A program made the position numbers and the translations under genes. A stretch of 64,000 bases of DNA from Protoeuglena noctilucae (lineage: Eukaryota): the NCBI GenBank assembly GCA_958009085.1, contig OY253670.1, positions 558,001 through 622,000 on the forward strand. The letters are read 5' to 3'. Positions 1-64,000 of the stretch are shown in pieces; position 1 is the first letter of the stretch, and each line of letters opens with the position of its first letter. Under the pieces are notes generated by a model. It was not told the origin of the DNA. It searched no databases and worked only from the letters and a program-made list of their open reading frames with translations.

Positions 1-1605
1 CCGTCACGAGGCGGTCCAGCTTGGCGATCATCAGCACGATCGGGAGGTCCTCCTGGCAGGCCTGCCGCACAGCACGCTCCGTCCCCATCATGACCTGCGC
101 AGGGCCGAGGTCCACTTGGTTCGTGAGATGCGAGATGCAGGCCGAGTGAGCCCAGTTACGGAATCGTACATGCAAGAGTGTACATGTTGATTGCGAACAC
201 CCGCGCTCGCCCGCGCAGCCCCTGCTCGCCATACCCGCCACGCCCACTGCACCGCTTCGCAAATGCGCCGTTGCCGGCACAGTCGTTGCAGCCCTCACCC
301 CCTCTGCGGCATCGACCACCAGCATGACGCCGTCCGCCAGCCGCATCGCAACCGCGACCTCGTCGTTGAAGTTGGCGTGGCCCGGGGTGTCGATCATATT
401 GCAGAGGAACGACTTGCCCTGGCTGTCCTGCAGGCACGGGTGCGGCACAGGCACTGCACGTCAGAACATTAACTATCCAACAGGCCTGGCGAACCGTGGG
501 ACACATGGTACGCTGAGATGGTGACACACGGATCCCAAACTCGTCAGCGCAACCATCAGCGGCACGTGGGCAGGTGCACACGGGCCCGCACCGCCCGTTT
601 TGGGTCTCACACCTGGAGGACCAGGGACATTGGCGTCATCTTGATCGAGATGCCACGGCTGACTTCGTCGAGTCGCGTGTCGGTGTACTTCAGCATGCGA
701 CCGTCGTCCCGGGTCTCGAATCCCGTCTGGTGCGTCTGCTGCACCACCATGTCCATCACCGCGGTCTTGCCGTGGTGCAGGTGCCCCACCACCGCCACGT
801 TCCGCACCAGCTCTGCGCGCGGAGGCAACAGGTCCTGTCAGAGCGCGTACCGGCGGAGCGGGTGCGCTTTAAAGCGACGGAGGGGCCGGCGACTCGCCCG
901 CGTTGCTCATGAGCCCCGTGAGGAACTCCGCCGAGTACGCCGTCTCCGGCAGCTCCTTCTCGACAATCTCGTGCTTCTTCTCCGTCACCGGCGCGATGAT
1001 CGGCTTCTCCAGCGGCTGCGCGTCCTCCTCCATCACCAGCGTCTCTGCGCACGCCGCAGCAAGGCCCGTGAGGCCGCCTGCGCCCCTCGCGGCGCACCAC
1101 CTCAACAAACAAATCATACGCGTTGCGGGGAGACCAAGACCCGCGCGGGCGCGCCTGTCTCGGGTCCGTAAACCTCCTCGGCGCTGGGGTAGTACTTCTT
1201 GTCCTCGTGGAGGACGATGTCGGTGCCTGGCTCCAGCCCCGGCCAATCCTGATCCATCATCTCGTCCTCCTGGTCGAGCTTGCCACGATCATCGACTTCG
1301 TCGCGCTCCCCATGGGCGCCGGACGGCCCCTGCGCGAAGAAGCGGCCGGCAACGAGATGCCGGCGAAGGCGCGCTCCGCACACCTCCAGCACGCGCTGAT
1401 GCAACGTTTATGTGATGCATCGCAAGTGAAGGACGACTGGAGCAGCGCATGTCAGCGAGAGCACAACCCACGCCCCTCCCCGCACAGACAGCCATCAGGC
1501 CCCGCCTCGCACCTCTCCCCCCGGCCTCCCATCCTCGCTGCTCTCCGACCCGCTGAGTTCCGGGCCAATGTAATTCCCGAACTCATCATAGAGGTCCTCG
1601 TCCAT
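1..1605 (-). CDS. EFTUD2: U5 snRNP 116 kDa GTPase Snu114/EFTUD2, 5' part (runs off the left edge; multi-exon)
   Basis: Spliced translation [17 protein letters not shown]...[40 protein letters not shown]...[16 protein letters not shown]...[16 protein letters not shown]...[13 protein letters not shown]...[12 protein letters not shown], which is the diagnostic Snu114 N-terminus plus G-domain motifs. ATG at 1605. Confidence 0.97.
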
Positions 1606-2088
1606 CCTATGCACCGGCAACCGGCCGGGCACCGGCAGGTGCGGGTTCGGCCACCGGCAGCGGCCCCGCGCGCAGCTGGTAGCGGATCCGAGGTCTCAGA
1701 TGGAGGCAAGTGTGACAAAGATGCAAGCGCTACTGTTACAACTTCTAGGATGTGGCCCAGAAATCCACAGGCTGGCCGTCCCCACAGCCCCCGCGATCTG
1801 GCTCGGCCTCTGGATCGCGGATCCGGGCGCTTGCAGAATTAGGTGACGAGACAGGTGTGTTTCAAGGCCCATGCGCCAGTGCCGGCTTTCCCCGCCGGTG
1901 GGCGATCCTGGCCATCGTTCTGGCAGCGCGCCGCAGCGCCAGCCCCTCCAAGCCCTCGAACGCGTGCGCAAAAGAAGTAGGCTGATTTATACGGCTGCAA
2001 AGGGTACTGTCACGGACCCAGGGGCCAGCCAGCAGGGGCCAGCCAGCCAAGGGGCCTCATCGGCCTCATGGGGCAGGTCTTGATGTAC

Positions 2089-4820
2089 TTAGTTGGTGAC
2101 GGGCATCTCCGACTCCTTCTGCGCCGCCTGGTCGCGGTCCTGATCCCGCTGCGGTAAACAGGGAGGAGCGGCGGATGACCTCCAGCCGGTCATCGCAGCT
2201 GCAAATCGTCCATTTCGGTGCTGGCGCGATTGGCCGCTCACCCTGGCGGCCGTCGCCTTCTGCTCCTCGCTCTTGAGGAACGCGATCATCTTGTTCATCG
2301 CGGAGATGTAGGACCGCGCGGAGGACACCACGATGTCCTCGTCGGCGCCCATCCCGGTGAAGCTGCGCTTGAACGTACGGCCCTGCGCCGACGTGCTGAT
2401 GCCGCGGGCGCCCTTGGGGACGATCGACACGCGCGTGTTGGCCAGCGCGTCAATCCCTTGCGTCACGCTCTGCACGTTGTAGTCCGTCAGCTGGCACGGC
2501 ACCTGCGCGATCGCCAAGAGCGATGCACTGGCAGGAGCCCTCCGGCATGGCGCAACATGCGAATCGAATGCACGTCGGCAATGTACTCACCTGCACCAGC
2601 TGGTCGATGGCCTGATACGCAGCATCGACCGGGCCCGTGCCAATCGCCGTCGAGACGCGGCTCAGCCCGTCCGGCCCCCGCAGACGCACCGTCGCGGTCG
2701 GCAGGCCCATCGTGCCGCAGACCACCTGCAGGTCCTGCAGCTCCCACACCGTCTCTGGCTGGAACACCTGCGGCAAGCCAATCAGCCACGGGTGGTTGGG
2801 TCCGTGCACTCCTGTGCAGTGTTCTGACCCAGCCACCTCAATCCGCCACCCCACGCAAGCCCTCCACAGTAGCGCTCTCCAGTTCTCAAAGCAGCCCTGC
2901 TTTTGACACCTGACACGACCCCACCACCACCCCACACGACCCCGCCTCCCGTCACTCCACCCAGCGCCACCCCATAACGCACCTGGTCCCCCATGAGAGC
3001 CTCGAGGTCCTCGTCCGTGATGCCGCTCTTCTTGCGGTCGGCCAGCTCCTTGAACCTCCGGAACACGCCGTCCATCTGCTCGTCCCGAATGTCGTACCCC
3101 AGGCCATGCAGAGCCGTGGAGAGCGCGTGGCGGCCCGAGTGCTTCCCCAGCACGATCCCCGCCTCGTCCTTGCGGACCAGGCCGATCGTCTCAGGGGACA
3201 TGATCTGAGAATGCCGGGACGAGTACCCAGGTGGGCCGATGACGCAAAGCACGAGATGACAAAACGTGCTGCGTCTTGCCACCCATCTCACCTCGTACGT
3301 CTCCCTGTTCTTGAGCATGCCGTCCTGGTGGATGCCGGACTCGTGCGCGAAGGCGTTGGCCCCGACGATGGCCTTGTGGGGCTGCACCATCATGCCGCTG
3401 TACTCCTGGACCATCCGGGACGTCGGGCTGATGTGCACGGGGCGGATGCCCGTGTACAGCCCGCCCATCTGCTGCTCCCCCCTGCAGCACAGAGACACAG
3501 GCGCACTCAGTGGTACGATTGCGAGCACCCGGGCCGGTCGTGCCGCAGCTCCGGTGCGCTTCCTGCATGACTTTCCACGGAGCCAGGCGCCGTCCCCCAG
3601 CATCAGCAGTGAATGGCTCCCACCCCGGCCTCTCACCGCAGGCGGATGGCCATGACGACCTCCTCCAAAGAGGCATTGCCCGCACGCTCCCCGATGCCGT
3701 TGATCGTGCACTCGATCTGCCGCGCGCCGTTCATCGCCCCGGCCAGCGAGTTGGCCGTGGCGAGGCCCAGGTCGTTCTGGCAGTGCGTGGAGATGATGAC
3801 GCTGTCGGCCCCGGGCGTGTTCTCCTTGATGCCCTTGATCAGCGCGCCAAACTCCTGCGGCAGGTTCCACCCCGTCGTGTCGGGGATGTTGAGCGTCGTC
3901 GCGCCGGCCTTGATGACCTCCCCGAGGATCTGGTACAGGAACTGCGGGGCAGGGCAAACCGACACAATGACATGTGATGTACGCCCCACGCTTGCCACAC
4001 TCACCACGCCAGCACCCCAGCAGCCTCCCGGGCGGCGCGGCCCGCCGCCTCGCCTTGGGATCGGAGCGTCCCGCGTCCTCCGGGCTGAACTCGATGTCCT
4101 GGCACCCCATCTCCCGCAGCATCCTCACGGCGTTGACCGCTTTCTCCACGACCTGGTCGGGCGTTAACTTGAGCTTGTACTTCATGTGGATCTCCGAGGT
4201 GGCGATGAAGGTGTGGACGCGGGGGTGCTTGGCGTACCGGACGGCGTTCCACGCCGACTCCAGATCCTTGGGGGCCGCACGGGAGAGGCCGCAGATCACG
4301 GGCGCGTAGCCTGCGTCGTCCACCATGTTGCCCACCTCCATTGCGATGTTCTTCACCGCCTGGAAGTCGTCCGGAGACGCGATCGGGAAGCCCGCCTCGA
4401 TGATGTCCACGCCGAGCTTGGCCAGCTGCCGCGCAATGTCGAGCTTCTCCTTCGACGTCATCGTGGCGCCGGGGGACTGCTCGCCGTCGCGCAGCGTCGT
4501 GTCGAAGATGCGGACATAGTTGGGATCGTCAATCCTGCGGGGCGCGCGCGAGGGGCGAGCTGCGGTCGGCGCGGGGAGGGCGAGGACGGACGGCGGCAAC
4601 ATCCGGTGGGCCCCCGGCCGCACCTGTTCGGAATGTACAGCGGTCTGGCTCGCTCCATGCCGTTCGAGCCTGCCGCTGCGGGACGCACGGTCGCGCACCG
4701 TCGCCGCGTCCCCCGACATGGGCCCGCCACTGCGAGAACTTGCGGGAAGACGTCATCGGCACGACAGGGGAGCCGACAGCGCGCAGGTGGAGCCCGCAGG
4801 GCCATGTCCTTGCCATACAT
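2089..4820 (-). CDS. leuA: 2-isopropylmalate synthase, plastid-targeted (multi-exon)
   Basis: Motifs [86 protein letters not shown] and the regulatory-domain GTGPVDAAY. The N-terminus is Ala/Arg-rich and transit-peptide-like (ATG 4820 or 4805). TAA at 2089-2091. Confidence 0.96.
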
Positions 4821-5607: not shown

Positions 5608-7291
5608 ATGAACTTTTTGACGCAGATACAAAACACTCAGAAGCAGAGCATCAGGGAGGTCGAGCTCGGCATTGCGGACAAGGTGGGGCGCGAATTGGGG
5701 CCTCGCTGCGATCCCTGCGAGGTATTGGCCTGCTCTTTGCCTGGAGGGACCCATCCATGCGCTCCTCTCCCGCAGGCTTCCTGGCATGACCAATTCAAGC
5801 ATTCGGCCTACATTTTCGCCGGCGGCCTGAGCTTCCAGCTCACGGAGGGGGACGTTTTGGCAGTCTTTTCGCAGTACGGGGAGATTGTCGACGTACACCT
5901 CGTCAGGTGACCTCTTGTGCCGCTTCCCGCAATGCTTTGTATGTGTCGGTCTGTAGCGATAGCCTTGCTTGAGCCTCCCGCGCAGGGACAAGGAGACGAA
6001 GAAGTCGCGTGGATTCGCCTTCCTGGCGTACGAGGACCAGCGCAGCACCGTCTTGGCGGTAGACAACCTCAATGGCATCAAGGTGGACGGCCGGACCGTG
6101 CGGGTGGAGCATGTCCTCGACTACAGGAAGAAGCGGGAGGAGGCGAGCGGCAATTTTGCGTGTGCAGTGACGCCGCCGTGGCGCGCGGCATCATTGTTAC
6201 TCAGTTGGTGTCGTTTCGAACTGACTGGATCGCGAGGTATCCTGCATCCGCAGATGGGCGACGCGATGGCGGAGGGTGAGGTGACGGCGGACGAGCTGAG
6301 GGCATTGGGAGGGAACCAGGGGCCACAGGGGGCGCCAGGAGAGCCGCGGGGATCGCAAAAGGAGTCCGAAGCGACTCGAGGATCAAGGCGAGTGCGGGGC
6401 TGGGCACCCGCTGCGTCTCTGAGTCGAGGCATCCGTGTTTGGGCAACGCACCGCCGTCGTCGCTCACAAGGCAAGTTTTCACTGCTGCCCCCGCCGCTAT
6501 CGCTCGCAGCGCGCGGGCCGCAGGAAGCGGCCTTCCTTTCGGTGGGGAGGGCAGCGTGTTTGGTCTCCTGACTGAGAGCCAGGGTCACGCACGCGATAGG
6601 GAGAGGCCGTCGTCGAAAGACGGAGACAAGAAGGCTAAAAAGGAAAAGAAGGAGAAGAAGGTGAGGAATGGCTGTGTCGATAGATAGAACTGAGACCTGC
6701 AAACGCACACTGGGTCTGTGTATGACGGCCAGTGCAGCGAACACCACTCGCATGAGCGTTCGGGACCTACCAGGCAGGCCTTGTGTATCTGTTTCGCAGG
6801 AAAAGAAAGAAAAGAAGGAAAAGAGGGATAGTAAGAGAAAGAGGGAGGACGATGAGATTGCAAGAGAATCAGGGGGTAGGGACGCGGGGGTGGGGCTGAG
6901 GCCGAGTGGGCGTGACGACCGGGATGGGGGCCGGGAGTGGGACGGTGACGGGAGGAGAGGAGATGGGAGGCGGGACGATGAGAGGCGGAGCGACAGGGAG
7001 AGGGATGGTGACGGGAGGCGGGGCGATGGAGACCGGGGAGTTGAGCGGGGAAGGGAGGGGAGGGATTGGAGGGATCGAGGTGGGGAGTGGAGGCGAGAGG
7101 GTGGGTCTCGGGACGAGCGGGGCAGTGGCAGGGGTGGGGAGGACAACAGGAGGAGGGGTGGGGGGCGTGACTATGGGGTTGAGCGGGGCGAAAGGTATAG
7201 GGACCGTAATGGCTCAGATGAGGGCGGGCGAAGGGGTGACAGGGGCTGGGGTCGGGAGAGGGACGGGGAGAGGGATAGGGGCAGGCATTAA
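5608..7291 (+). CDS. RBMX2: RES-complex RRM protein RBMX2/Snu17 (Ist3) with Lys/Glu- and Arg/Asp/Gly-rich tail
   Basis: MNFLTQIQNTQK...ASWHDQFKHSAYIFAGGLSFQLTEGDVLAVFSQYGEIVDVHLVRDKETKKSRGFAFLAYEDQRSTVLAVDNLNGIKVDGRTVRVEHV; 5 introns traced in frame. Confidence 0.95.
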
Positions 7292-11100: not shown

Positions 11101-14100
11101 CCGCGCACGCGCCACCGCGATCGCCGCCTCCGCCAGCGCCCGCCGCTGCTGCGCCCCCGCCCCCGCCCACTGCCGGAGCACGTCCTCCAGACTCAGCTCC
11201 GCCACACGCAACTGACGGAGGGCCTGCGGATGAGCCGGATACGGCTTTCATGCACCATTCTTATTGCGATGCACTCGTACTGCACGCACTCCCATGCAAC
11301 CTAAGCTGCACACGGCGACAACACCGCCCAAAGTAAGCGACACTAACACTGCCGCTCACCAGCGTGCCCTCCGCGCGCGCCACGACGCCGGCCTGCACCC
11401 CCGCCGCCCTCGCGGCACGGATCGCCTCCTCCAGCGCAGCCTCGGCCCCCGGGGCACCCGTGGGCGCCGCCAGCGCCCCCTCCAGATCCCGCATGGCCCG
11501 CAGGACCTTGCGTGCCCTCGCCACGCGCACCCCCGCCGCCGCCGCCTCGTCAATCGCAGCCTCCACCTCCGCGGCCGTCTCCGCCGCGCCTGCAACAGCT
11601 GACAGCCGCCCCTGCGCCGCCTCGGCTGCCCGCCACGCCTCCAGCTGCTGGGCGGCACGCTCCACCTCGTCCGCCACGTGCGATCTCACGAACGCCGGGC
11701 GCCCCTCGACCTCCTCTTCTAGGAACTCCCTCGCGCGCGCCAGCGCCGCCTCCACCGCCTCCTCCGCCGCCCCCCGCGCGCCCCGGTCCACGTGCTTCAG
11801 CTGCAGCAGGGCACGGTACAGCGTCTGCTGGGCCCGGACCCCGGCCTCCATCTCCGCCCGCATCCGCACCGCCGCCGCCAGCAGCTTGTCCCCCACGCCC
11901 TCTCCGCCCAGCCGCTCCACCTCCCGGATCGCCGCGTCGAGCCGGGGGAGGTCCGCGACCGACCCCGCCGCCGCCATGGCACGTTCCAGGCCCCCGCCCG
12001 CCTTGCCCACCGCCAGCCGCTGCTTGGCCGACGCCACCCGCGCCTGCATCGCCTGGAGGTCCCCCGCAGGCACCATCCCTCGCAGCGCCTGCACCGCCGC
12101 CTCGGCCCCGGGGATCGCCGCCCGCAGACGCGACCGCGACGTCACCGGTGGCCGGTCCGGCACGCCCCCGGCCGCCTGCCCGCCCTCGGCGTCGTCCCTG
12201 GCGCCCGCCCCGCCCGCCTGGTGCTCCTGCAGCGCCTCCGCCAGCGCCGCAAAGGCCTCCACTCCGCGTACCTTGGCCTGCAGCATGCGCAGGAGCTTGC
12301 GTGCGTCCCCCAGGCTCACTCCCATGCTGGCGTGCTGTACGGAGGAGATGGCCTGCTTTAGCGTCGCCGCCACGCCGTGCAGCGCTCGGATGTCCTCGGA
12401 ACCTGCAGAGCAAGGAGAGCAGGGGTGGCGTGACATGGGGAGCAGCTGATGGTAGTTAGGGACGTCATGTTCTGGCAGCTGGGCCGCCTGTCTTGGCTTA
12501 TTTTGACTTGGCACAGGAGTAGCTCATGAGGTAAAGCCACGTCGGGCACAGGATGGCTCATTGACAACAGCCCCGTGCCATTTCATCAACCAATGCGACC
12601 CCCCAACCCCCAGGAGGGGCGCTCACCTGCCGTGTCGGCCATCTCCAGGACACTGGGCTCCCGGCCGGGCGTGGCGGGCAGGCTCCAGGGCAGGCTCGTC
12701 TTGGGCGACGAAGAGGCGTTGGGATCGCCGGCGCTCGCGGGCGCCGACACCGTCGATGCTTCTCGGTCCATCGAACGCCTGGTGCTCCTCCCCGGGGTCT
12801 CCAGATCCACTGAGAATGTATGAAACACCTCGGACATGAGCTTTGCATCGCGAGAGCAGACACCGCTATGCAAGGCCGACACAGTGCAAAGTGAGAGGGA
12901 GAGGAGCATCGTGATGGCAGCGCGCGATGCCACGGCCCGTCCCGCCCCGTCCTCTCACCCGAGATGCGCTCCTGCTGCTCGATGGCGGCAGCCATGGCAC
13001 CCCGCAGGTACTGCAGGGCCTCTTGGCTGGCACGACACCTCGCCAGCAATGACCGCCCCGCCTCCATAGAGTCTGCCAGGCTCGGGAAGTCCTCTGCGGC
13101 GCTGACCAGGTCCTCTAGCTCACGGAAAGCCTTCTCGTCCATCTGGGAGTGCTCGCCCAGCGCCAGCAGCGACGAGAGGCGGTTGGAGAGCTGCGAGGGC
13201 GGGAGACGACACAGCGGGTAACATGGCAGGTCAGGTTGGGTGACCATGTGGGCGAGGCTAGCATGTGGTATGTTCCCACGCAAGCGGAGTACTCGCCTCG
13301 AGTTCCCTCCGCGCTGCTGCCAGCGCCGCCTGCGCCAGCTCTGCCACCTCGGGCTCTGCGTTGCGGGCGTGGTACTCGAGGGCACGCGACAGCGCATCCA
13401 CGCGCGAAGGGGTGGCGCCGCCCGACAGCCGCGGGCCCTGCGGTGAAGCACCATCAAGCGCACGCGCCAAGGCGCCCGACACGCTCTCCTCCGGCAGCAC
13501 CCCTCCCTCGCACGCGGCCTCCGCGATGCGGATGTCCGCATGCGCCTGCCTCGCCCACCGCTCCAGCCTCGCCGCGTCCCCCGACGCCCCCGCGCCGCAC
13601 CCCGCCAGCGCCGCCAGCCCCTGCCCCTGCAGCTTGCCCCAGTGCGTGAGCGCCTGCTGCACGCACGCCAGCGCAGCGGGCGTGGCCGGGCGCGCGCACT
13701 CCGTCTCGAGCAGAGACGACAGGCGCACCGCCACGATGCGCGAGAGGGCCATCCCGATGCGGCACCACTCCTCCAGAGCCGCCGCCGCCGCCTCACCCCC
13801 CGCCCCCGCCGCCAGCTGCCCCGTCACCGGGGTCGTCGTCGGCGGGTCGCGCAACACGTCTTCCAGGCCAGTCAGCTCCCGCCCGGGCCCCACCGCCCAG
13901 TACACCACACCGGGGCCCCCGTTGACCTCGGACAGGCGCGTCCCCGGCACCACAGCACCCCTCCACGCCGCCTCGATGCCGTTTCTGGCGGCGCGGGACG
14001 ACCGGTCGACGGTCGCCTCCACGCCCGCCTCGCTGGCGCCGAAGAGCCGCGCGACCTGCAGGTGCGCCATGTTGGCGACCTGCGAGAGGTGCGCGCCACA

Positions 14101-31400: not shown

Positions 31401-31918
31401 CATGACGTCTGTGATGTGTTCTCAGCCCGTGCTTGTCCCGACAAGCCTCCTGACACCGGTGATCCCACGTCCCGCAGGGCACGGGTGTTCACATCGAGAC
31501 CACGGCCCCTCTGCCCGTGCAAGTGGACGGCGAGCCCTGGCTGCTGCCGCCGTCCCACGTGCGCATCGACTTCCACTGCCAGGCCCCCGTGCTCCGGAGA
31601 CCCCGGTCAGGCCCTGCAGGGCTGGTCGCGGCAGCGGTGTCTGAGGTGCGTTTTGACTGCCATGGGGAGAGAATGGCAATGCAACTGAGCGTCAGTCGGT
31701 GCCATGGCTGGGATGGGTGCTGGCTTGGGTAGGGATCTGGCTGGGCCGGGATGGATGCTGGCTGAGGCAGGTGACGGTTGTGAGGCACATCTGCGACCGC
31801 ACTGTCCACGCCCGTCCCGCAGGTCCTGGTCGCTGCCGAGTCGCTGCAGGTCATCTCGTGCGACCAGCGGAGGGAGCTGGCAGCTGCCATCGCCATGCGT
31901 GTCGCGCCGCTGATTTAA
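25458..31918 (+). CDS. DGK: Diacylglycerol kinase, plant cluster-I type (N-terminal TM, two C1 domains, catalytic and accessory domains)
   Basis: [20 protein letters not shown]1a H...CYVC...[13 protein letters not shown]...C. C1b CMAC...[14 protein letters not shown]. Catalytic/accessory motifs [72 protein letters not shown] and [12 protein letters not shown] at 31916-31918. Confidence 0.93.
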
Positions 31919-43655: not shown

Positions 43656-44963
43656 ATGGGGGACGAGGAGCCCAAGCAGCCCGTGAGAGGCAGCGGACGA
43701 TAGCAATGTTGTCAATGACGCTGTTAAATAAATACCGGGAGAGCTTGCCGTGCCCCCTCCCTCGCTGCGCAGGTGTGGGAGGGCGAGCTGAAGGACGGGG
43801 TGGCGCATGGTCAGGTGACCGCGAGCCACGGCGTTTCCAGCCGCGCAGGCCTCGATGCGAGGCTTTCGCTGCTTAGTTGATAATGTAAGTAAGGCATATT
43901 ATTGGTTCTCAGGCGTCCGCTCGCCCCCAGCGAGTCGGGTGGAGCTGCCATTCCCCACCCCAGCCGGGCAGCCCGCGCGGAGCCCTCACCCGCGGCTGCG
44001 GCTCGTCTCCGCAGGGCAAGATGACGTACCCCGGACCGGTGGATCCCGAGACGGAGGAGGAGCTTCCGGGCCCCACGTTCGAGGGAAACCTCGAGGAAGG
44101 CGTGCGGCAGGGCCACGGCAAGTACGTGTGGCCAGGGCTGCCCCCCATGGAGGAAGGGAGCATCGCGGTGAGATGTATATGCATATTTCACAGCGCGAGC
44201 GGCCCTCCCTTCGCCCGTCGCCTGCCTGGCCCGCACCGGCATGCACTGAGCCCCGCCTCCCGGACACCGCCCCGCCTTGCGCAGGCGTACTACGAGGGCA
44301 ACTACAAAGATAACAAGAAGCACGGGAAGGGGTTCATGAAGTTCCCGGACGGGTCTACGTACGACGGGGAGTGGAACATGGACGAGATGGAGGGCGAGGG
44401 GACCTACACGTACGCCAACGGGGACGTGTACAAGGGGCAGTTTCTGGCGGGGAAGGCGAGGATCGCACGTGGCGTCTGGGTACGCGCTGTGCCCTCATCG
44501 CCGTCGAGAGTTGTGACGACGCGCCCGTCTCCCGCTGGGTCCGCAGAAGCACGGCAAGGGGTCGTACATGAGCGCGCAGACCAGGTCGCAGTACGTGGGG
44601 ACGTGGAAAGAGGGGGCGTTCCAGGGCGGGCAGTGGGTCCTCGTGGACAACACCGTCTACACCTCCGAGGTGTGTGGCAGGTCTATGATCCGAGATGCCA
44701 GCCCCGCGCCTGTTTTATGCACGCCTGCCGGCCACTGGCCTACGTCCTGGAAGCACAGAGCATGCGCACCGAGCTCGCCACCGTCGGTGCCGCCGCAGGA
44801 CGACAAGGTGGCGACGCGGGACGTGTACGGCCGTGCTGAGTACAGGCCTGGGGTGTTCCAATCGGTGCGGCTGTCGAACGACTTGGTCGAGTTTCCCATC
44901 TGGGGCGGCGCTGCGGTGCCCATCCCTGAGGACACCGCGGAGGTGGCGGGGGAGGCCGCCTGA
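43656..44963 (+). CDS. RSP10: Flagellar radial spoke head MORN-repeat protein RSP10 (RSPH1 family)
   Basis: Spliced MGDEEPKQPVWEGELKDGVAHGQGKMTYPG...FEGNLEEGVRQGHGKYVW...YYEGNYKDNKKHGKGFMKFPDGSTYDGEWNMDEMEGEGTYTYANGDVYKGQFLAGKKHGKG: MORN repeats and an N-terminus matching Chlamydomonas RSP10 as I recall it. Confidence 0.88.
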
Positions 44964-48561: not shown

Positions 48562-50615
48562 ATGGCGTCCTGTCGCGCATCCACGCGTCCCCTGTGGGGG
48601 CGCGCTTGCCCTACTACACACTCCGGCCCTGGAGCGCGCCGGGCCGCGCCCTGCATGGACTTCCTGCATCCCGGAGAGTTCCTTGCACCTGACGACGATG
48701 AGCTGGCGTTCGAGAGAGCGATACCTTGCTCCGTCCGCAGTGGGGACGCTCGTCACGGGGGACGATGGCGGGGCCGACCGTGTCCAGGTGACCGAGGCGG
48801 TCGCGGAGCAGGAGGACGCGTCCGAAGCCGCGGCTGGGCCGTCGCCTAGGTCGTCGTGGTCGCTTTGGAGCCCGCTGGACAGGGACGTGGTGGTGAACGC
48901 CCTCGCTGCGGCAGGCGCATCCGTGGGTGAGCCCCGCCGCCCCCCAGCAGCCCCGGCAGTGCGCCCAACGCGTCGCATACGCATGCATCGATGTGTCGGC
49001 TTACCTGACTACCTGCGCCCGCACCGCAGCGGACCCTCTCATGTCGCTCGTGGACACGGCGTTTGTGGCACGCCTCGGCACCGTGCACCTCGCGAGCCTG
49101 GGACCCAACGCGGCGCTGTACAACATGATCTTCTTCATTTCTTTCATGGTAAGCCGAGGGCGGGGCCCTGGCCGCTTCCCCGCTGCCAGAGTCGGGCTGC
49201 CCGAACCCCGCCCGCTCCTGCCCCCGTCCCAGGCCATGGCGGTGGTGACGACGGATCAGATGGCGTCGGCCAACAGCAAGGGCGACGTGCGTGGGGTGGG
49301 CCGCGCCTTCTTCACCAGCGCAACCACGTCCCTGCTCGTGGGCCTGGTGTGCTGCGCGGCGATCGTCGCCTTCCCCGAGGCCATCCTTCGGGGGTTCTTC
49401 CAGGTCAACGACGAGATGATGGGCCCGGCCAAGGTCTACGCCGTCATCCGGGCCCTCTCCATCCCCGCCTCGCTCATGATGGTCACGTGCCAGGCCGCCT
49501 TCCGCGCCCTGCTCGACCTCCGCACGCCCCTCCTGGTCGTCATCGCCGCCGGCTTCGTCAACCTGGTCCTCGACCCCCTCATGATGTTCAACATGGGCAT
49601 GGGCATGGCCGGCGCTGCCTGGGCCACGACCATCTCCCAGTACATTGGCGCGGTCGCCTTCTTCGTGCTCCTCTACCGCCGGCGCCGCGAGTTCGGCCTC
49701 GACTCCGCCCTCCAGGAGTGCCAGGTTCGCGTCCGCGGCGCTCCGTCGGGGGGTTTCCTGTCCCAGTACAGCTGCCTGCTGACCGACCTCGACTGGGGGA
49801 CCTTCACGCGCCGCTGCCGCACCCTGGCCTTGCGTGCGGTGCTCATCCTGTCCACCTACACCATGGCGTCCATCACGGCCACCAACCTGGGCACGCGCGT
49901 CATCGCCGCGCACCAGGTCATTAACCAGCTCCAGCAGCTCCAGCTCAACGTGACGTGGGCCTTCCTGTCCGTCGGCCAGACCATGACCGCCAACGTCTAC
50001 GGCGGCAAGGGAGGGGCCAAGGCGGCACGCGTGGTGGCCAACCGCGTCGTCTTCTGGGGCGCCGCCACCTCCGCCATCCTCGGCATTGTCACCTGGAGCC
50101 TGCGCGACTTTCTGCCCCTCGTGTTTGTCCAGGCAAGCGCTTGTATGCCCCACGCATGTACCATGCCGCACCGCTCACCAGCCGGCGTGTGGCGTTCGAC
50201 ATCCAGTCCGCAGCCTGCCTCATGCGTTCCGGCACTGTCTCCTGAGCATGTCAGGAGCATTGTGAGCGTGTCGCAGGGTGCGTTGTGAGCACGTGCCACC
50301 CCGCGTCCTCCTCCTGTTCCGCAGGACCCCGCTGTGCTGGCGATTCTGCGCACGGCCATGCTCCCCGCCTGCGCCATGCTGGCCTTCTCCTGGAACAACG
50401 CCCTCGAGGGGTGCCTGCTTGGGGCGGACGACCAGGGGTATGTGGTGGGCACCTACCCCTGGGCCGTGTCGGCGGGCCTCATTGTGCTGGCGGCATCGTA
50501 CAAGCTAGGGTACGGACTCCCCGGCATCTGGTGGTCCCTCACGGCCTATTACATCGCGCTGGTGACGTCGTTCGGGTCGCGATTCGTGGTGCCGTGGAAC
50601 CGCGGCAACCTGTGA
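48562..50615 (+). CDS. MATE/DTX-family efflux transporter (DinF/DTX44-47-like), probably plastid-targeted
   Basis: AADPLMSLVDTAFVARLGTVHLASLGP, YAVIRALSIPA, QAAFRALLDLRTPL, NLVLDPLMMFNMGMGMAGAAWATTISQY, IAAHQV, LEGCLLGADD and GLPGIWWSL. The start codon and first exon are uncertain. Confidence 0.92.
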
Positions 50616-50804: not shown

Positions 50805-52072
50805 TCACTTGCACCTGTCCAACGTCTGCAGCGCCTGAGTCAGGTAGGACCGTGCTGCCGCCACATCGTCAAAGTCCAGCGCGCTGACAGCGTGCTTGGC
50901 GAACCGCCGGGCCTCGGCCACCGCGGAGAGCGCCGACGGGGGTGGACTGGGCCTGTAAGACATCGTAGGGGGCTCCGACACAGCCTGGGGCGCAAAAGAG
51001 AGAACGTCGGTGTCGGCATTGCCTCGGTACCCGAGGGTGCCGGTGGCGCACGGCGTGCAGGTAGCGGCTCGCACCGGCGGGTGGAAGGGCATTGCGGGGG
51101 CAGGGGCTTGGGGTGGCGGTGCCTGGCTGAAGGACGTGGGGTAGGAAGAGGGCTGGGGGGGCTGGGGTGGCGGGGCGGAGCGGGGGTCGGCGCCGGCGAA
51201 GAAAGGCGGCGGCGGGGGGCGCGGGACGGGCGGGTCACGACTCGCGTCGTGCATGGGCGGCTGGGGGAAGGCCGATGCCTCGGCCTCGCCACGTGAGCCA
51301 CGGTCCGTCCCGGGCACAGACGCGGTGCCGTCGCTCGGGCGCGACGACGCCGCTCCCGGGCCAGGGGCGCCCGCCGCTGCGCTCTCCTCGCCCGCACCGC
51401 CCGGCGTCGGCTGGCGCCCCTCGCGGATGGCCTTGCGGATGTCAGCGGCCTTCCAGAGAGAGTACCGTGCCTTCTTCACCAGCTCGTCGGGCAGCTCCCC
51501 GAAGGTCTCCAGCGCTTGGATGAAATAAACCGCGGCGTAGAACGTCTTGGCCGTCGATTCGGTCGCTGCACCCGCGCGGTCCACGCGGTCCGCCTTGTCA
51601 AAGATCTCCATGGCGAAGCGCTCCATCTCCAGGTGGTCCGCCTCACGGTCCAGCTTGCCCAGAGTCGCACGTTGGGTCTCCATCTGCTCAATGACTGCGC
51701 GAAGGGTGCGGGGAGCCGCAGAAGTTCGGCGCGGCCCCTCTCCGGTACCATGCCCCTCGCATCGCGTCCCGGGAAACGAGCAACGCGTTCTGGCCGCTGC
51801 GTATCAACGACGTGGATCTCGCCTGTCTCAAGGAGCTTTTGCAGCTCTGGCGAGCGATCCTCGACCTTCAGGCCCTGGGACACGACGAACTCGCGCAGGT
51901 AGAAGGCCACCTGCGCCCAGCGCGCGGAATCTTCACCCCTCACCCAGGAGACGCGAGAAGAGGGCGCATGAGCGCAGCGAGGGGGCGTAGGGCTCGCCTT
52001 GGGCTTCAGCTTGGCCACTTCTGCGGCCCTTTGGAGGAAGGGCTGCAGCCCCTTGACCTCCGGGTCGCCCAT
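50805..52072 (-). CDS. VTA1: ESCRT/Vps4 cofactor VTA1/LIP5
   Basis: MIT region LQPFLQRAAEV...VAFYLREFVVSQGLK...FAMEIFDKADRVDRAG...TAKTFYAAVYFIQALETFGEL...KARYSLWKAADIRKAIREGRQPTPG, then a Pro-rich linker and VSL domain AEARRFAKHAVSALDFDDVAAARSYLTQAL. Confidence 0.95.
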
Positions 52073-55486: not shown

Positions 55487-57027
55487 ATGGGGGACGGCCT
55501 GCCGGGGCCGTCCTCGTCCGGGGCGAGGGGTGAAAATGCACCCTGGATCGAAAAGTACCGGCCTAGCAAGCTGGACGAGGTCGCTGCGCACACCGAGATC
55601 ATTGCGACAAGTGAGCGCGAGGCATTCGCCGTCGCGCGATGCGCGCATCGGCGCTGCGTGGAGAAGAGTCTTATCTCGCGTCCGTGTCCCGCAGTCAAGC
55701 GGTTCATGAACGAGGACCGGCTCCCACACCTCCTCTTTTACGGGCCGCCCGGGACGGGCAAGACCTCGACCATCCTCGCCCTGGCGCGCGAGATGTACGG
55801 GTCGCGTGTTGGTAATATGGTTCTGGAGCTGAACGCGTCGGACGACAGGGGCATCGGGGTCGTGCGGCAGGAGATACAGGATTTCGCCTCGACGATGCTC
55901 ATGGTGGGGCGCCACCGCTTCCGCGAGAGCGCGCTCCCGGCATTGCGCCGCCGCGCTGGGAGCCCGCGGATGCGTTCCTCTCCGCAGTTCGCTGGGAAAG
56001 CCCTGAAGCTGGTCATCCTGGACGAGTGCGACGCCATGACCAAGGACGCGCAGTTCGCGCTGCGCAGGGTCATCGAGAAGTACTCGCGCAACACGCGCTT
56101 CTGTCTCATTTGCAACTACGCCTCCAAGATCATCCCCGCGCTGCAGTCGCGCTGCACCCGGTTCCGCTTCGCGCCGCTCCCTGAGACCTTTGTCCGCAAC
56201 AGGCGAGGCAGCAGCCCGGGCAGGGCGCCGGGCGGGGCGCCGCGTTGCGGGATGACCGGCCTCGCGGTGCCGCGACGCAGGGTGGAGCACGTGTGCCAGG
56301 TGGAAGGCGTGAAGATTGACGGCCCCGGGCTGGACGCGGTCGTGCGGCTGGGCGCCGGCGACATGCGCCGCACACTCAACATCCTCCAGTCGACCGCGAT
56401 GGCCGAGAACGACGCCGGGGGCGCGATCACCGAGCGGGCCGTCTACTCCAACACCGGTGGGCCAGCATGAAGCGCCTGTGCCTGCCGCAGTCGTCCCAGC
56501 CCGGACCATTGGCCCTGCGCCAGCTCGGACCCAGACCCGCATCGGCCACACCCTGCCCGCAGACAACCCCCTCCCGGCGGACATCAAGGCAGTCGCCCGG
56601 TCTCTGCTGAACGACACCTTCACCGGTTGCATGGAGGCCGTGCAGAAGCTCCAGATCGACAAGGGCGTCGCCCTCGTGGACGTCGTCAGGTGCGCCTTTC
56701 CTCTCAGAGACGGGCCGCTCCTGAGCCAGCCGCTGTGATCACAGCGGCTCCCAGTGCACGCGCCGGGCCGCTCGAGACTTTCTGGGCGCCCGACATCGAT
56801 GCGTCGCCGTGGCAGTGATGGGCCAGGCCACGGGCGTCGATGTCCGCAGGGAGCTCCTGCCGCACGTGACGTCGATATCCATGCCGCCCAGCGCAAAGGC
56901 GGACCTCGTGGAGCACATGGCCGAGATCGAGTACCGCCTCGCCTTTGGGACGAACGATGGCATACAGCTCGGGGCTCTCGTGGGTGCCTTCGTGGAGGCG
57001 CGGCAGGCGGTCGTGGCTTCCGTGTAA
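55487..57027 (+). CDS. RFC5: Replication factor C small subunit (human RFC5 / yeast Rfc3 orthologue)
   Basis: PWIEKYRP, LPHLLFYGPPGTGKTSTILA, VLELNASDDRGIGVVR, KLVILDECDAMTKDAQFALRRVIEKY, IIPALQSRCTRFRFAPL, GDMRRTLNILQS and IEYRLAFG. Confidence 0.95.
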
Positions 57028-57302: not shown

Positions 57303-59045
57303 CTACATGAAATCGTCGGGGAAGGGCTGGATGCCCATGCCCGCAATGCCGTTGCGCACGTCGTCGCAGTCCGCCAGAACGTCCAGGCATTCCAGCAGAG
57401 ACAAGAGGTCCTGGTCCCCCATGTCGTCGATGAAGGTCGATATCGGGACGGCGTTCTGCGCGAGAAAGAGCGCATCAGGCAGTCGGGTCCCGACCACACA
57501 CCACCCAGCCAGGAGCGCAACGGGCCAGAGGCTGGCGGAGTTGGCATACGCACGATCCCGTACGGCGCCTTCGCAAGCGCGGCGGCGCTCGCCTCGGGCT
57601 GGAAGATGTACGAGTGGGGCGAGTTGTCGACAATGATCGTCTTGCTGAGCTCCCGGCCCAGGCAAAGGAGGTTCTTCACGTAGTTTCCCTCGAACGGCTG
57701 GCATGCCTCGCGGAAGAGGCGCCACCGGACCACCTTGGACACATCCAGGAGGTCCAGCAGAGGGTCCGCGTACTTGGCGAGGGACGCGGTGAACACGACG
57801 ACCTGCGGGCGGCGGCGCAAGGCGTGAGCAGCGCGAGGGCGGGCGCGCCGCCGGGTCCATCACGCAGTGCGTCATCGCTGACCTCGAACTTGGCTCCCAC
57901 GTGCCGCAGGAACTCATCCAAATGCGGCCGCTTCAGAACATAGACGTCCAACACCCGCCCGTCGATGTCCACCGGTATGATGTAGTCGGCGTCGGCGACG
58001 GGCTTGAAACTCGAGTGGACCAGCGTCTCGTCCAGGTCCAGCACCTGCGCGAGCGCCACGGCCAGCCCCAACCGTCAGCGCCAACCGTCAGCGTCAACCG
58101 GCCATGCGCTTGCCCGGGCCGTCCCAAACGCGGCCGCGGCGCTTGCATGCAGCGGCTGCACCGTACCAGGGTCTTCTTCTTCCGGTCCATCTCGTGCGCG
58201 GGGCCGATGACGCAGTTGGGGTAGCCCGCCCAGCGCTCGCCCTCCGAGGGGATGGGCACGCCCCGGGGAATCCAGCCCGCGGAGCCGGCCGGCGTCGACG
58301 ACGAGGCGGTGAAGACCAAGCGCGCCCGCCCGGGTGCCACGTCGACCGAGTAAATGATGGGGTTGGCCGAGGCCGGGGGCGGGGCCGGGGCCTCCAGGTC
58401 CCGATCGTCGTCCGCAGAGAAGTCCCGCATGCCCCGGGCCTCGGCGTGGGATCGCGGGGAGTTGATCAGATCGCGGATGGGGGCCTGAGGGGCCACGGCC
58501 ACGGCGATGTGCGGCTGCGGCTTGCCGTCCGCGTCCAGTGCGCGGTGGCCCCCGAGCTCGGCCTCCGTGGCGTCGCGATTGAACTCCGTGTCTGCGGATG
58601 GAGGAGCGCGGTCCTTTCCGCGAGCCGCAGCGGGTATCCCAATGCGCAAGCACGGCCCGGCGCGCGGCTCACCATCGCCGTTGCCGTTGTTCCAGTCGTC
58701 GTACCCTCCCCGCTGCGCCCGCGGCATGAGGCAGCACAGCATGCGGGCAAACCATCCCTTGTTGCTATTTTGACGAGGACGTTCCATCTCCCCCTTGCTC
58801 CAGCCCTTCGGGCCACTTCCAGGCCCGGGCCCAGACCGCTCGTCAACCTGTGCTACGACCTGCGGTCGCGGAGGTGCCGAGTGACCGCGGCGAGCCACCG
58901 AGGTTCGTGCATCGATGAAGCGGACCCGCGGGCGTGCGAGCGGGGCGGCGGGCCCCCGGCGCGCGGCACCGACCTTGTCGACACTCGACGAGCTTTCACC
59001 GTCCTCCGTCGCCTGACCCTCCGGCAGGACCTCCACCGGCGCCAT
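57303..59045 (-). CDS. CTDSP: CTD small phosphatase (SCP/CTDSP/Psr1, NIF/HAD family)
   Basis: [88 protein letters not shown]-terminal VVAQV and MLCCL (palmitoylation-like) motifs. Confidence 0.93.
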
Positions 59046-59697: not shown

Positions 59698-61506
59698 ATG
59701 GAGAACGAGGCGAGGCTCGTGGACTTCCTTCGTCCGGTGAGAATGGCGACTGCGAGGAGCCGCGGCGAATGTGCTTCAGCATCGCCACGGGAGCGCTACG
59801 CGTCCTCCAAGACAAGGCTGGGCAATGCGCGGGCTTCCGAGGCGTTTTCGGCCTACTCGCTGCAGGAAGAGATTGCAGAATGGGAAAGCGAAAAGAAGTT
59901 CTTCCCCCTTTTCGCGGGCATGGCGCTCGTCGGCTTCTACGGGACGTACTTCACCGTGGAAAGGTGAGGGCGTTTCGGGGCCCCGCGGCACGGCGGAGTG
60001 CGCGCGTGCGGTTCATGGTGCTCTTGAACTGCGATTGTCTACATGGCAGTGGCTCCTTTGGCGCCCATCGACGCCACCTCGGCCGTCGTCGCCTTCGCAG
60101 CTTCCTGGACGTGCTGAAGCGAGCCAACGTGTTTAGCGTGGATGAGGACGACAAGAAGAAGTTCGCTTTCCTCATCGGTGAGTTGAGTTCGGGGGCTTCT
60201 TGCGCGGATCCCTGGAACACGGCACCTCACGCACACGGGCCCGGTTCGCGCGCACGCAGTGAGGACGGCGCTCGCCCCCCTCTTCTTCTGCTTCGGCATC
60301 TACATGGCCATGTTCCACTGGGGATGGCTCGCGGACTCGGACCGCACCTTCCTCTTCAGGCGAGTACGTTCCCGCTCGCCACGCCTGGAACTCCTTCCGT
60401 CCCCCCCGTCGCTGCAAAGTCCCTCGCTTGCCCGCTCGCAGCCAGGCAACCATGTCAGTCGCGGCAGCTTTCGTGGCGATGCAAATAAACGAGGTCATGT
60501 TTTTCATTAAGAACAACAAGGTGCGGGGCAGCGCGGGAGCGGACGGCCGAGCTCTGTCACATGCCCTGGCGCATTGCTGCGCTGTGGCCGTTTACAGGAC
60601 GCCCATCACCGTTGTCGAGCACTGGTATGCAGGCCTACCCGGACGACGTGGGCGTCGCCCTGGTCACCACCCCGCTCTACTGCATCTACCTGTTCACGTA
60701 CCTCTTCTGGCCGTCCAGCATGAGCCTCAGGGTGAGTGGCCGGCCGCGGCAGGAGCCAGTTGCGCAGCCCACCCGACGCTGCGGTAGAAAAGGGCAACGC
60801 TGGCACTGCTCACGCGCTCCCGGAGCCGGAGATGCGAGGTGTCGCGGCGTGTGCATGGCTTGCGTCTCCGCGCCTTCGCCGCAGGTCATCCTGAGCCACT
60901 TCATCTTCGGGGAGCTCTTCAACTTCGCCAAGGGCATCAACTTCCTCTCCGGCGCCACGGGCACCTGGGCCGTCTTCACCCCCTCCCTCGTCGCCCGCCA
61001 GGCTCTCTCCATCGCTCGCCAGCTCGTCGGCGTGGGTGAGCCAGCGGCGCTCCCGTGGTCACCGGGGCATGATTGCTGCGCCTGACTGCCAAGGCACAGG
61101 ACCGCCAACCCCGGCCCCCTGATTCCCCTTCACAGCGGCCAACCTCTACGCCTGGTACTGGCTCATCTGGAACAAGGTGTGGGACCTCGAGCTGCCGGAG
61201 GAGCTCCAAATCAACCTCCTCTGGGTCGCCATCGTCTACGGCGTCGGGGCCATCTCGCTCAACCTCGTCATCTACTCGGAGTTCAAGCTCACCTTGGACA
61301 TGTCCAAGACTCTGCTCAGCCAGAGGTGAGCACGGAGGAGGGGAAGCGGCACCCAGAGGCGCGTAGAGGGCCCTCCCGCTCGACCCCCACGTCCACGTCG
61401 GCGCAGGAGCAAGCGCATGAAGGCCGACGAGCTTAAGAAGAAGCAGGAGCGCAAGGAGAAGGTCGAGAAGGTCGAGAAGGCCAAGAAGGACGGGAAGGCC
61501 GAGTGA
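59698..61506 (+). CDS. Multi-pass membrane protein (~6-7 TM, possibly TLC-domain-like) with a Lys-rich C-terminal tail
   Basis: 8 exons join in frame: MENEARLVDFLRP|EEIAEW..FFPLFAGMALVGFYGTYF..LAPLFFCFGIYMAMF..VALVTTPLYCIYLFTYLFW..INLLWVAIVYGVGAISLNLVIY..KKDGKAE*. Strong C/G-ending codon bias. Confidence 0.7.
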
Positions 61507-61736
61507 GGTGTTTCTGACGGCTGGAGAGCGATCGCGTCGTGATGATTCGCGGCCGAGCCGACCGCGCTGCAGACGCCTAGTGCGCGCTCGTCACACCTCC
61601 GGTGCCGTTGTTTGCTTTGCTTCCTCCTTTGCCCCTAGCCGAAGCGCCGAAGCGCCGGCGCACGATCGCCACACACCGATTGCTCCCGTGAATCAGAACT
61701 GCGGAGTGAGGGCTGCAGCCAGCCCCGGGGGCCTCA

Positions 61737-64000
61737 ATGGCCCCCCCGATAGCGCGCGGGAGGGGGGGGGCGGCAAGGCTCGCATTCGCATGGTGAGCGC
61801 CGTCGCAGAAACGATCATTGCGAATAATATTCTGCGCTTCGATGGGCGAACTGGCCGCTAGCCTCCTGAAATCCTGAGTAACTCCGAATCGCTGCCAAAA
61901 CCGACCGCCCTCAGGTGGTGGTGCGCCATACTTCTCGTCCTGGTCGTGGGCCTGGCCGCTGCGCACGGTGAGCCCCTGCAGGCGCCGCTCCAGGCGTCCC
62001 CGCCTCTTCCCATCGCGTGCGCCCTGAGGAGAAACGCGATGCCTCGCTTGCGATGCCGGCATGCGCAGCGTGACCGGTAGAAACCAGGATATCGACCGCG
62101 GCGACGCCTGAGACCCGCGGGCCCCTCCGCCCCCAGGACCCATTCTTGCCCTCGCACGCCGCTCTCTGCCCGCCGCGGCACTGCTTCTCACCGGCGCCGT
62201 CTCCGCGTTCCTCATCGACAGCATCCTCCTCGCGTTGACGGCGCGCCTTGAGAAGCGGAAGGCGAGTCGCCGATGGGCAGAGATTTGGGTGATTTCCTGC
62301 TCGTGGCCCTCCCTGCGCACCCCGCCCGGCCCGCCCCGCCCCCGCAGGACTCCGCGTTGCCCGCCGAGTGGGCCATGGCAATCCCCAGCGTTCTGGCCTT
62401 CGCCCCACTCATCCTCGCGGCCGTCCCCGGCCCGGCCACGGGTGCCCTCGCCACGGGCGCCACATGGCACGTCGACTCTGGCGGCTACCCTCGGCTGCAC
62501 GTCCTCGAATTCCTTATCGCCATCGTGCCCTCCGCCGTGCTCATGAAGTCTGCCTCGCTGGCGTACCGCCTCCACGTCTCCATCCCCGACCTCCTCGGCA
62601 CGTGCAAGTGCCGGCTCGCGAGGCGAGTCATCTACCTCACGACGGCCGCCGTCGCCTCCCTCATTTTCGCCCTCATCCTCTGCTACGAGGCCATCCGCCT
62701 CTCTCGCGCCCTGAGCGCCTCGACCGTCCAGGACATGCTCACCGCCCTCGAGGTCGCCTATCAAGCAGACCGCAGCGCAATGGTGTCCTTGGACGGTAGC
62801 GGCGCCCGGTCCGCCCTCGACGCGCTCAGCGCGTACGTCAAGTCGCAGACCGACGTCTGCGTGCGGGCCGTCCGCCTGGGCTCGGCGCCCGTGGCCGTCA
62901 GCTGCGGGGGGACCCGCCCCGGCCCCGCATGGGACGTGGTGGTGCAGGAGACCCTGCCCTCGGGCGACGTGTTCGCCGTCACGCTGGACCACACAGGCGA
63001 GTCGCGCCGGCTCGCAGCGACGCCGGGATTTCGCGGGCACGTCGCATGACGCATCCGGGTCCCCACCCGCTGCCTACCGTGAGCGGCATGCGTCTTACAT
63101 GAGAGTTCCTCCCGTCCGCAGACTGGCGCCGGGATCTGCTCCTGAAGCGCACCCCGATCGCCGCCGGCGTCCAGGTGGCCGTGCTTCTCGTGGGCGCGGC
63201 TCTGATCCTGGCACCCATGGCCGCCTTCGGGGTCGTGCGCCCCCTCGAGTCGCTTTTCCGACAGGTCCTCGAGTGCGCGAGGTACTTGGACCACAACGGC
63301 CTCCTGCCCCCGCCGGGGCCCCTACCCCGGCAGCTGCACCGCGGGAGGTCGTCGACCGACCAGCGCCACCGGGAGGGCCGCCTGCCTGGGGTTGTGCGTG
63401 GGGCGTCATCCAAGGGCCTTGCCGGGCTTTCTTCTCCCACCGAAGGCCTCTTCCACGCCCCGCAAGATGGGCGCCTCCCGCGCGACTCGTCGGGCGGCAG
63501 GGGCTGCGTGGAGGGCGAGGAGCTGACGATCGAAGAAGCCATGTCACGCGTGGCGCACATGACGCAGCGCCTCATCCAGGCGCACGTCCTCGACTCCAAC
63601 GCCCTCGTGCACCGTCTCATGAACCAGATCTACGGGCACGACCCCCTGGCGTGCAGGTGCCGGGTCCTCCAGGCTGCCAATCGCTGCTCTTTCTGCAGCT
63701 CTGTCGCCATCGGAGCGACTCCTCACACCTTCAAGCCCCGCCCCCGCAGTTCGGTGGTCAACAACATCATCCAGCTGTACATCAGCCCCGCCCGAGGGAA
63801 CAAGGAGTCGTCGTACATCGCCGTCTCCTCGAGATCACGCGCCAAGGTGATGGCCGCAAAAAGGCTTCCTCTGAGCCACGTTCAATCCTTTACTGGATGG
63901 CGCGGCTGCGTGTACCATGCTGCCAGCATGAAGTCGGCGCTGCATGTGTAAGAAGACCAGGAAGCTTGCGTGGCGAGGGGCAATGTCTCTGCAAAGCTCA
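61737..64000 (+). CDS. Multi-pass membrane protein, 5' part (continues beyond the window); possible sensor region of a cyclic-nucleotide or other signalling enzyme
   Basis: In-frame exons from MAPPIARG..WWWCAILLVLVVGLAAAH through several hydrophobic helices, an extracytoplasmic-looking loop, TM + VVRPLE (HAMP-like start) and a helical linker. The last visible donor is at 63847. Confidence 0.6.

Follow-up and report, generated by a model that had tools for sequence, protein, structure and literature searches.

Compensated GC 5′ splice sites are known from animals and plants, where they account for about 1% of introns (Kralovicova et al. 2011, PMC3167603; Thanaraj & Clark 2001). In algae, the share of GC-AG introns was given as 39.6% for Aureococcus anophagefferens, 22.2% for Micromonas pusilla and 7.7% for Chlorella sp. 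(Iwata & Gotoh 2011, PMC3033335); the same source describes the 5′ end of U1 small nuclear RNA (snRNA) as unchanged in Aureococcus and Micromonas and calls the origin of the GC-AG introns an enigma. GC donors made up 56% of 241 curated junctions in Emiliania huxleyi (Feldmesser et al. 2014, PMC4028052), and a share of about 14-17% in pelagophytes has been ascribed to their high GC content (bioRxiv 10.1101/2024.10.30.620910). Counts of major non-canonical and canonical splice sites are 7090 and 117336 for Chlorella sorokiniana, and 8057 and 106289 for Micractinium (PMC6310983, supplement file 8). Here we describe GC-AG introns in a 64-kb stretch of DNA (contig OY253670.1, positions 558,001 to 622,000; 'the window', numbered 1 to 64,000). 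The borders at which they are removed are exactly those predicted, at four sites as seen in RNA and at seven more as seen from homology across the junction. The best joint explanation, which we hold with considerable confidence, is that the window belongs to the nuclear genome of a GC-rich marine green alga and that these are ordinary U2-type introns, about one in five of the total, produced by GC pressure and compensation within the donor.

A first-pass annotation, made from the sequence, had proposed GC donors at about 20 introns of the window. All 22 donor positions that it named read G/GC(G/A)(A/C)G on the strand assigned to them (60360, 62262 and 62997 lie on the plus strand), the slash marking the exon–intron border. 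Support is exact at 11 of them, coming from RNA contigs or a spliced protein at 28791, 31296, 50133 and 57592, and from homology at 897, 1154, 4053, 44456, 51822, 51997 and 56203. It is partial at three (35852, 62262 and 62997), and no site was refuted. The coordinates and the evidence for each are collected in Table 1.

Contigs of three metatranscriptome (RNA) runs (X1, X2 and X3) and of a DNA run (X10) were compared with positions 44001-64000. Among the 15 contig joints listed for this region, 14 were present in all three RNA runs and absent from X10. These consist of 12 GT-AG introns and two GC-AG introns, the latter in a MATE transporter gene (50133) and a CTD small phosphatase (NIF) gene (57592). 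The remaining joint occurred in the DNA run only and is an assembly artefact. The exons on either side of the intron at 57592 align with positions 56-126 and then 127-160 of the Pfam NIF profile. A contig loose end adds a further GT intron at 43815-44014, and seven of eight loose-end strings, which have no match anywhere in the window, probably derive from chimeric contigs. Upstream of the MATE coding region, a 554-nt GT-AG intron at 48187-48740 (+) is also supported by RNA; it is four times as long as the median intron (137 nt) and probably lies in the 5′ untranslated region (UTR).

Two further GC-AG introns were found in a gene for diacylglycerol kinase. A search with one exon of this gene returned a 909-aa protein (P0001) of the Joint Genome Institute (JGI), which is encoded on a contig of 4630 nt and matches the query exon at 100% identity. 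The protein maps exactly to 27263-31915 across 10 introns (eight GT-AG and two GC-AG) and differs from the window in one residue (position 439; codon 29225-29227, +), being otherwise identical over 909 aa. This near-identity indicates that a near-identical strain of the alga is present in the JGI environmental data set. Since the genomic coding span (4653 nt) is longer than the contig (4630 nt), the contig represents spliced RNA. In total, GC-AG introns account for 4/25 (16%) of the introns seen at the RNA level, counting the contig joints listed (95% confidence interval 5-36%).

These joints bear directly on the possibility that modelling errors account for many of the proposed GC donors, the transcripts using a nearby GT or keeping the segment. 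Such errors are conceivable: AGGCGAG-like strings are common in GC-rich coding DNA, with G/GCRAG occurring 197 times on the two strands, and the introns at 6143, 50133 and 51997 and the one in RFC5 are in frame and free of stops, so that each could be read through on paper. The site at 34507 has no coding context, and one X2 contig enters the intron at 60360. However, no permitted cut or shift of the RNA joints 50133-50324 and 57456-57592 yields a GT..AG intron, and both segments are skipped in three runs, so at these sites the transcripts do not use a nearby GT; use of a nearby GT is one of the outcomes that the first-pass annotation had named as counting against its claim. Every testable site passed, which refutes the artefact reading for the 11 exactly supported sites, and decoy donors were rarely chosen by the gene finder described below. 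For the set as a whole we regard artefact as very improbable.

Homology across the junctions was assessed by comparing 100 single-exon translations with Pfam and by searching the PDB with single exons or with read-through translations. In the Snu114/EFTUD2 gene, the exons flanking 897 align with residues 87-133 and 136-203 of chain 8xi2_C and with 79-125 and 128-190 of the human protein (3jcr_B), and the gap in the alignment is filled by one exon residue plus a split codon. At 1154, the EFTUD2 N-terminal profile PF16004 is matched from 44 to 90 up to the end of one exon and from 93 to 124 starting at residue 1 of the next. A GTGAGT lies near the donor at 4053 in the gene for 2-isopropylmalate synthase (IPMS), and its use would break the frame.

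For VTA1, 149 homologues were fetched, and a profile was made from the 120 of them that are 230-480 aa long. Against this profile the spliced model shows no gap at either junction, while retention of the intron at 51997 inserts 29 aa and costs 21.6 bits in the best domain. A PDB search with the read-through N-terminus of VTA1 gave only a weak alignment, which crosses the intron-coded residues, and a 152-aa protein that is 100% identical (P0010) begins within exon 3 and spans no junction. The middle of the VTA1 protein, encoded at 50805-51692 (-), is a long Pro/Ala/Ser-rich linker that separates the N-terminal Vta1 from the C-terminal Vta1_C domain (Pfam).

The read-through exon of RFC5 aligns with human RFC5 (6vvo_C) in four blocks separated by three insertions, two of which correspond to GT introns. 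At 56203, 26 residues stand against one residue of the human protein, and they do so exactly at the predicted intron. Because all three introns have lengths that are multiples of three and contain no in-frame stop, the gene reads as a single 323-codon open reading frame (ORF) with three insertions.

The share of GC donors in the window was estimated with a Viterbi gene finder in which a donor G followed by any base had equal cost and the other donor weights were trained on GT donors only. The finder placed 83 introns, 59 with GT, 19 with GC, three with GA and two with GG donors, and 17 of the 22 named sites were among them. The GC share was 24-26% across four penalty settings, which admitted 5-10 decoy donors. 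Allowing GC in addition to GT improved a GT-only model by 198 nats, compared with 72 for GA and 62 for GG. Blocking individual donors cost 0.9-14.6 nats, but this cost does not discriminate, because the RNA-proven donor at 57592 costs only 1.2 nats. A first gene finder, which had no position weight matrix (PWM) for donors, did not tell them apart (GG 15, GT 14, GC 9, GA 9) and was dropped. A test independent of the finder, which asked for G/GNRAG sites with a coding signal upstream and a drop downstream, was positive for 17/91 GT, 14/197 GC, 1/104 GA and 5/164 GG sites; its decoy positives lie mostly beside true donors or gene ends.

The finder introns, less the five GA or GG introns and those that clash with RNA, were then merged with the RNA-level introns and two RFC5 introns. 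In this merged set, 24 gene models contain 86 introns (about 3.6 per gene), 20 of which have GC donors (23%; 95% confidence interval 15-34%), and 13/24 gene models have at least one. One of these 20, at 5688-5985 (GCGCGA, 298 nt), is doubtful. Median lengths are 137.5 nt for GT-AG and 117 nt for GC-AG introns. A share of about one in five is thus credible for the window, which agrees with the one in five to six introns of the first-pass annotation and, at 16-23%, bears out its statement that the share is far above the usual 1%.

The GC donors differ from the GT donors in how well their flanks match the consensus. Perfect flanks were defined by five positions (-2 A, -1 G, +3 R, +4 A and +5 G) and occur in 16/20 GC donors vs 13/66 GT donors of the merged set (p = 1.6e-6). 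The RNA-level introns, which are independent of the finder weights, give the same picture (GC 4/4, GT 3/21; p = 0.0028). Conversely, GC accounts for about half of the perfect donors (16/29) and 4/57 of the imperfect ones; the former value is close to the C/(C+T) ratio within introns, 0.62. Acceptors are alike in strength (mean PWM scores 3.27 vs 3.46, p = 0.48). All GC donors of the merged set read GCGAG, GCAAG or GCGCG. This pattern fits the classical compensation of GC 5′ splice sites in U2-type introns. Introns of the minor spliceosome (U12-type) can also end in GY-AG (PMC3033335), but an ATCC-type donor box is present in 0/20 merged GC donors, and their flanks are the U1-complementary consensus. 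A further possibility is editing of the +2 C to U before splicing; nothing points to it, mature RNA being uninformative either way. We give these two explanations next to no credence.

The following mechanism would account for the pattern. A GC donor loses the U:A pair that +2 forms with U1 snRNA and is therefore tolerated only where all other pairing positions match (AG/GCGAG or AG/GCAAG), a compensation that the donors of the window show. Strong GC-biased mutation or gene conversion may turn the +2 T into C; the change would be near neutral at fully matched donors, about half of which would by now be GC, and would be selected against at imperfect ones. No change of the spliceosome would be needed. 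The alternative is that the spliceosome of this lineage is altered, in the sequence or modification of U1 or U6 snRNA, in U1C, in Prp8 or in another protein, so that C is also read at +2. A share ten to twenty times the usual 1% is in its favour, as is the near parity of GC and GT among donors with perfect flanks (16 vs 13), which is expected if the machinery is indifferent at +2; Iwata and Gotoh (PMC3033335) also raised proteins of the U1 small nuclear ribonucleoprotein or base modifications as possibilities. Against it, the near confinement of GC to fully matched donors (4/57 among the imperfect) is the classical pattern of unchanged machinery, GA and GG donors are at noise level, and nothing in the window, which holds no snRNA gene, favours a changed component. 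The restriction to perfectly matched sites thus favours mutation pressure with compensation over a changed spliceosome, and we judge the latter improbable. The first-pass annotation had offered both GC-biased drift of donors and relaxed recognition at +2. The former fits the 16/29 GC among perfect donors, while a general relaxation at +2 finds no support and is improbable in view of the GA, GG and imperfect donors.

A more specific proposition is that C and T at +2 serve equally well in any donor whose other five U1-pairing positions all match; the share of GC donors would then be the product of the perfect-donor fraction and the compositional bias (0.62 within introns). Such equivalence could stem from an adapted spliceosome (a protein component or an snRNA modification) or from an age-old tolerance revealed by GC pressure. 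We think it rather unlikely; were it true, the abundance of GC-AG introns, called an 'enigma' in 2011, would find a quantitative answer in the window.

Several observations weigh against the account by GC pressure and compensation, or against the share on which it builds. The three RNA runs all come from one study, and the contig joints used are 15 of the 42 in 44001-64000. The RNA-level share is imprecise, since it is drawn from 25 introns. Eight of the 22 named sites have the backing of a crude gene finder, frame logic or the motif. Of the 25 RNA-level introns the finder recovered 18, and the three in-frame introns of RFC5 all escaped it. It still chose decoy donors, 5/83 after strand resolution and 13-14 per type in the raw two-strand runs, and is noisy for that reason; one of its GA donors, at 48674, is a proven false positive because it lies inside the RNA-supported intron 48187-48740. 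At 60360, the intron may be retained to some extent, because one X2 contig extends into it up to 60419. Both the direction and the neutrality of the T-to-C change are deduced from one window, and an Rfam scan of its 64 kb gave 0 hits and no snRNA gene.

Table 1. GC-AG introns of the window, with two GT introns of RFC5. Positions are in window coordinates, a slash marks the exon–intron border, and the last column gives all the evidence for the site, apart from details in the text.
Feature	Position	Strand	Donor	Evidence
GC-AG intron, Snu114/EFTUD2 gene	813..897	-	cgg/GCGAGT	PDB continuity; also gene finder
GC-AG intron, Snu114/EFTUD2 gene	1045..1154	-	cag/GCGCGC	Pfam PF16004 continuity
GC-AG intron, IPMS gene	3942..4053	-	aag/GCGAGG	Pfam HMGL-like 2-141, then 143-240
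Putative GC-AG intron, RBMX2-like gene	6143..6253	+	gag/GCGAGC	gene finder
Putative GC-AG intron, RBMX2-like gene	6388..6509	+	aag/GCGAGT	gene finder
Putative GC-AG intron, large ankyrin-repeat gene	13191..13296	-	gag/GCGAGT	gene finder; coding score +6.8 upstream, -15.8 downstream
Putative GC-AG intron, 5′ part of diacylglycerol kinase gene	26780..26882	+	aag/GCGAGT	frame logic
GC-AG intron, diacylglycerol kinase gene	28791..28960	+	cag/GCAAGG	only junction type reproducing P0001
GC-AG intron, diacylglycerol kinase gene	31296..31477	+	cag/GCGAGG	only junction type reproducing P0001
Putative GC-AG intron, 'Ubl' gene	33316..33553	-	cag/GCGAGG	gene finder
Doubtful GC-AG intron, possibly 5′ UTR	34441..34507	-	gag/GCAAGT	motif; no coding context on either side
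Putative GC-AG intron, HORMA-domain (ASY1-like) gene	35852..35945	+	cag/GCGCGG	gene finder and HORMA profile length
Putative GC-AG intron, HORMA-domain (ASY1-like) gene	37861..38104	+	cag/GCGAGG	gene finder; donor-blocking cost 14.6 nats
GC-AG intron, radial spoke protein 10 (RSP10, MORN) gene	44456..44546	+	aag/GCGAGG	exons on PDB 7jr9_E 70-126, 127-164
GC-AG intron, MATE transporter gene	50133..50324	+	cag/GCAAGC	skipped in X1, X2 and X3 contigs, not in X10
GC-AG intron, VTA1 gene	51695..51822	-	cag/GCGAGA	homologue profile; RNA contig piece ends at 51694
GC-AG intron, VTA1 gene	51911..51997	-	aag/GCGAGC	homologue profile
GT introns, RFC5 gene	55611-55694, 55904-55987	+		first two insertions vs human RFC5
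GC-AG intron, RFC5 gene	56203..56280	+	cag/GCGAGG	in frame, stop-free; PDB insertion
GC-AG intron, CTD small phosphatase (NIF) gene	57456..57592	-	gag/GCGAGC	skipped in X1, X2 and X3, not in X10
Putative GC-AG intron, membrane-protein gene	60360..60441	+	cag/GCGAGT	gene finder; donor-blocking cost 10.7 nats
GC-AG intron	62262..62347	+	aag/GCGAGT	acceptor side in RNA
GC-AG intron	62997..63121	+	cag/GCGAGT	donor side in RNA; also gene finder

At two of the sites with partial support, RNA fixes one side of the intron. An RNA contig piece covering 62346-62993, contained in longer records (in X1 and X2 at its 62993 end), sets the acceptor at 62347, with an AG at 62346-62347, and no donor in the roughly 850 nt upstream is better than the one at 62262. 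At the other end of the piece the donor is the GC at 62997, because 62994-62997 contains no GT. Good GT donors at 61793 (atg/GTGAGC) and 61968 (acg/GTGAGC), both on the plus strand, lie downstream of the stop of the membrane-protein gene (61506) and ahead of the exon ending at 62261, and the gene downstream of 61506 probably has further 5′ exons around them; one RNA contig bridges the two genes. Scans of metagenome contigs with the exon 62348-62995 and with P0001 gave no confirmed locus. In the HORMA-domain gene, the 46 profile positions from 107 to 154 are matched by about 46 residues only if a 40-aa exon in the 35852 frame is included. PDB searches with two HORMA exons found no match, nor did a homologous-protein search with the exon modelled at 37012-37299.

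The other sites are predictions. The 111 nt at 6143 are open without a stop, so that retention is possible there, and the PDB alignment of the read-through segment with RBMX2 stops at the end of the exon. At 26780 the upstream frame stops 6 nt past the donor and a join to 26883 gives one open frame, although the gene finder passed over the site. Upstream of the part of the diacylglycerol kinase gene covered by P0001, two C1-type zinc-finger segments were found at 26081-26170 and 26422-26541 (+) by tblastn with Apatococcus homologues; the gene finder skipped the second of them, and the 5′ part of the gene therefore has more introns than were modelled. A homologous-protein search with an exon of the 'Ubl' gene returned no homologue. 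The first-pass annotation had also invoked restoration of the frame at 34507, an argument that does not apply there, as the sequence looks non-coding on both sides. The X2 contig that enters the intron at 60360 continues for 124 letters past 60419, and the first 30 of these have no match in the window; it may represent a retained intron joined to chimeric sequence, or else use of another GT donor, at 60419/60420.

The window has a G+C content of 67.5% (mean of 16 rows) and carries intron-rich genes densely packed on both strands. Of the sampled words from 50001-60000, 55-63% were present in four marine metatranscriptome runs of one study and 100% in four further runs labelled with one organism, which probably represent the source DNA. 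The top named relatives of a diacylglycerol kinase exon are the trebouxiophytes [Myrmecia] bisecta and Apatococcus fuscideae, at 45-47% identity. For the Snu114 exons the best match was PDB chain 8xi2_C, with the human protein behind it, and the best named relatives of VTA1 are mixed (a chytrid, Erythranthe, Chlamydomonas eustigma and Prasinoderma). An IPMS exon searched against the ESM Atlas gave no usable lineage. TGTAA is the chlorophyte poly(A) signal; it occurs downstream of the stop codon in 6/22 genes of the window, which is uninformative. Judged from these similarities, the source appears, with moderate security, to be a marine green alga; the named matches include no close sequenced relative. 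Emiliania huxleyi and Micromonas pusilla were rejected as the source in view of the named diacylglycerol kinase relatives and the intron density. Literature searches returned no report that can be tied to the source organism.

Apart from the introns, an uninterrupted ORF of 1237 codons at 39290-43003 (-) is a putative gene for a low-complexity product with GRGRGR runs and a high content of Gly, Ala, Arg and Ser; a Pfam search with it gave no match. It lies where the GC skew of the window is strongest (-0.355 at 40-44 kb) and carries several tandem repeats.

The main value of these results is practical, as a warning for annotation, and they also provide a small, clean illustration of donor compensation. 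Gene finders restricted to GT donors would get about one in five introns of the window wrong, and many genes would be affected. In-frame introns without stops pass silently as ORF, as all three RFC5 introns do, and are a hazard of their own. The phenomenon and its link to GC content were published between 2011 and 2014, and the window opens no new question; it adds an intron-rich, probable green alga to the few GC-rich algae in which GC-AG introns are known to be abundant. The elevated share that the first-pass annotation mentioned for a GC-rich pedinophyte green alga could not be confirmed as a precedent, the word 'splice' occurring nowhere in the preprint of that genome.

Compared with the known systems, the window resembles the algae described by Iwata and Gotoh (PMC3033335) in its high G+C content (67.5%, where about 64% or more is expected of this group), in a share of about one fifth, in its marine origin and in the similar lengths of GT-AG and GC-AG introns. 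Unlike Micromonas pusilla, which has about 0.9 introns per gene (8831 splice sites; PMC6310983 supplement), it has about 3.6 per gene, and the restriction of GC to perfectly matched donors measured here goes beyond the account in PMC3033335. Emiliania huxleyi is likewise a GC-rich (65%) marine alga with RNA-verified GC donors and acceptors that are still AG, a state ascribed to genome GC (PMC4028052), but it is a haptophyte in which GC donors are the majority, whereas they are a minority of 16-23% in the window. The pelagophytes have a similar share; they are, however, stramenopiles with 0.1-0.9 introns per gene, and their figure derives from predicted gene models (bioRxiv 10.1101/2024.10.30.620910). 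As at the GC sites of animals and plants (PMC3167603; Thanaraj & Clark 2001), a GC donor in the window needs a stronger match elsewhere in the donor. The window departs from these sites in that the frequency is ten to twenty times higher and the acceptor signal is not stronger (p = 0.48).

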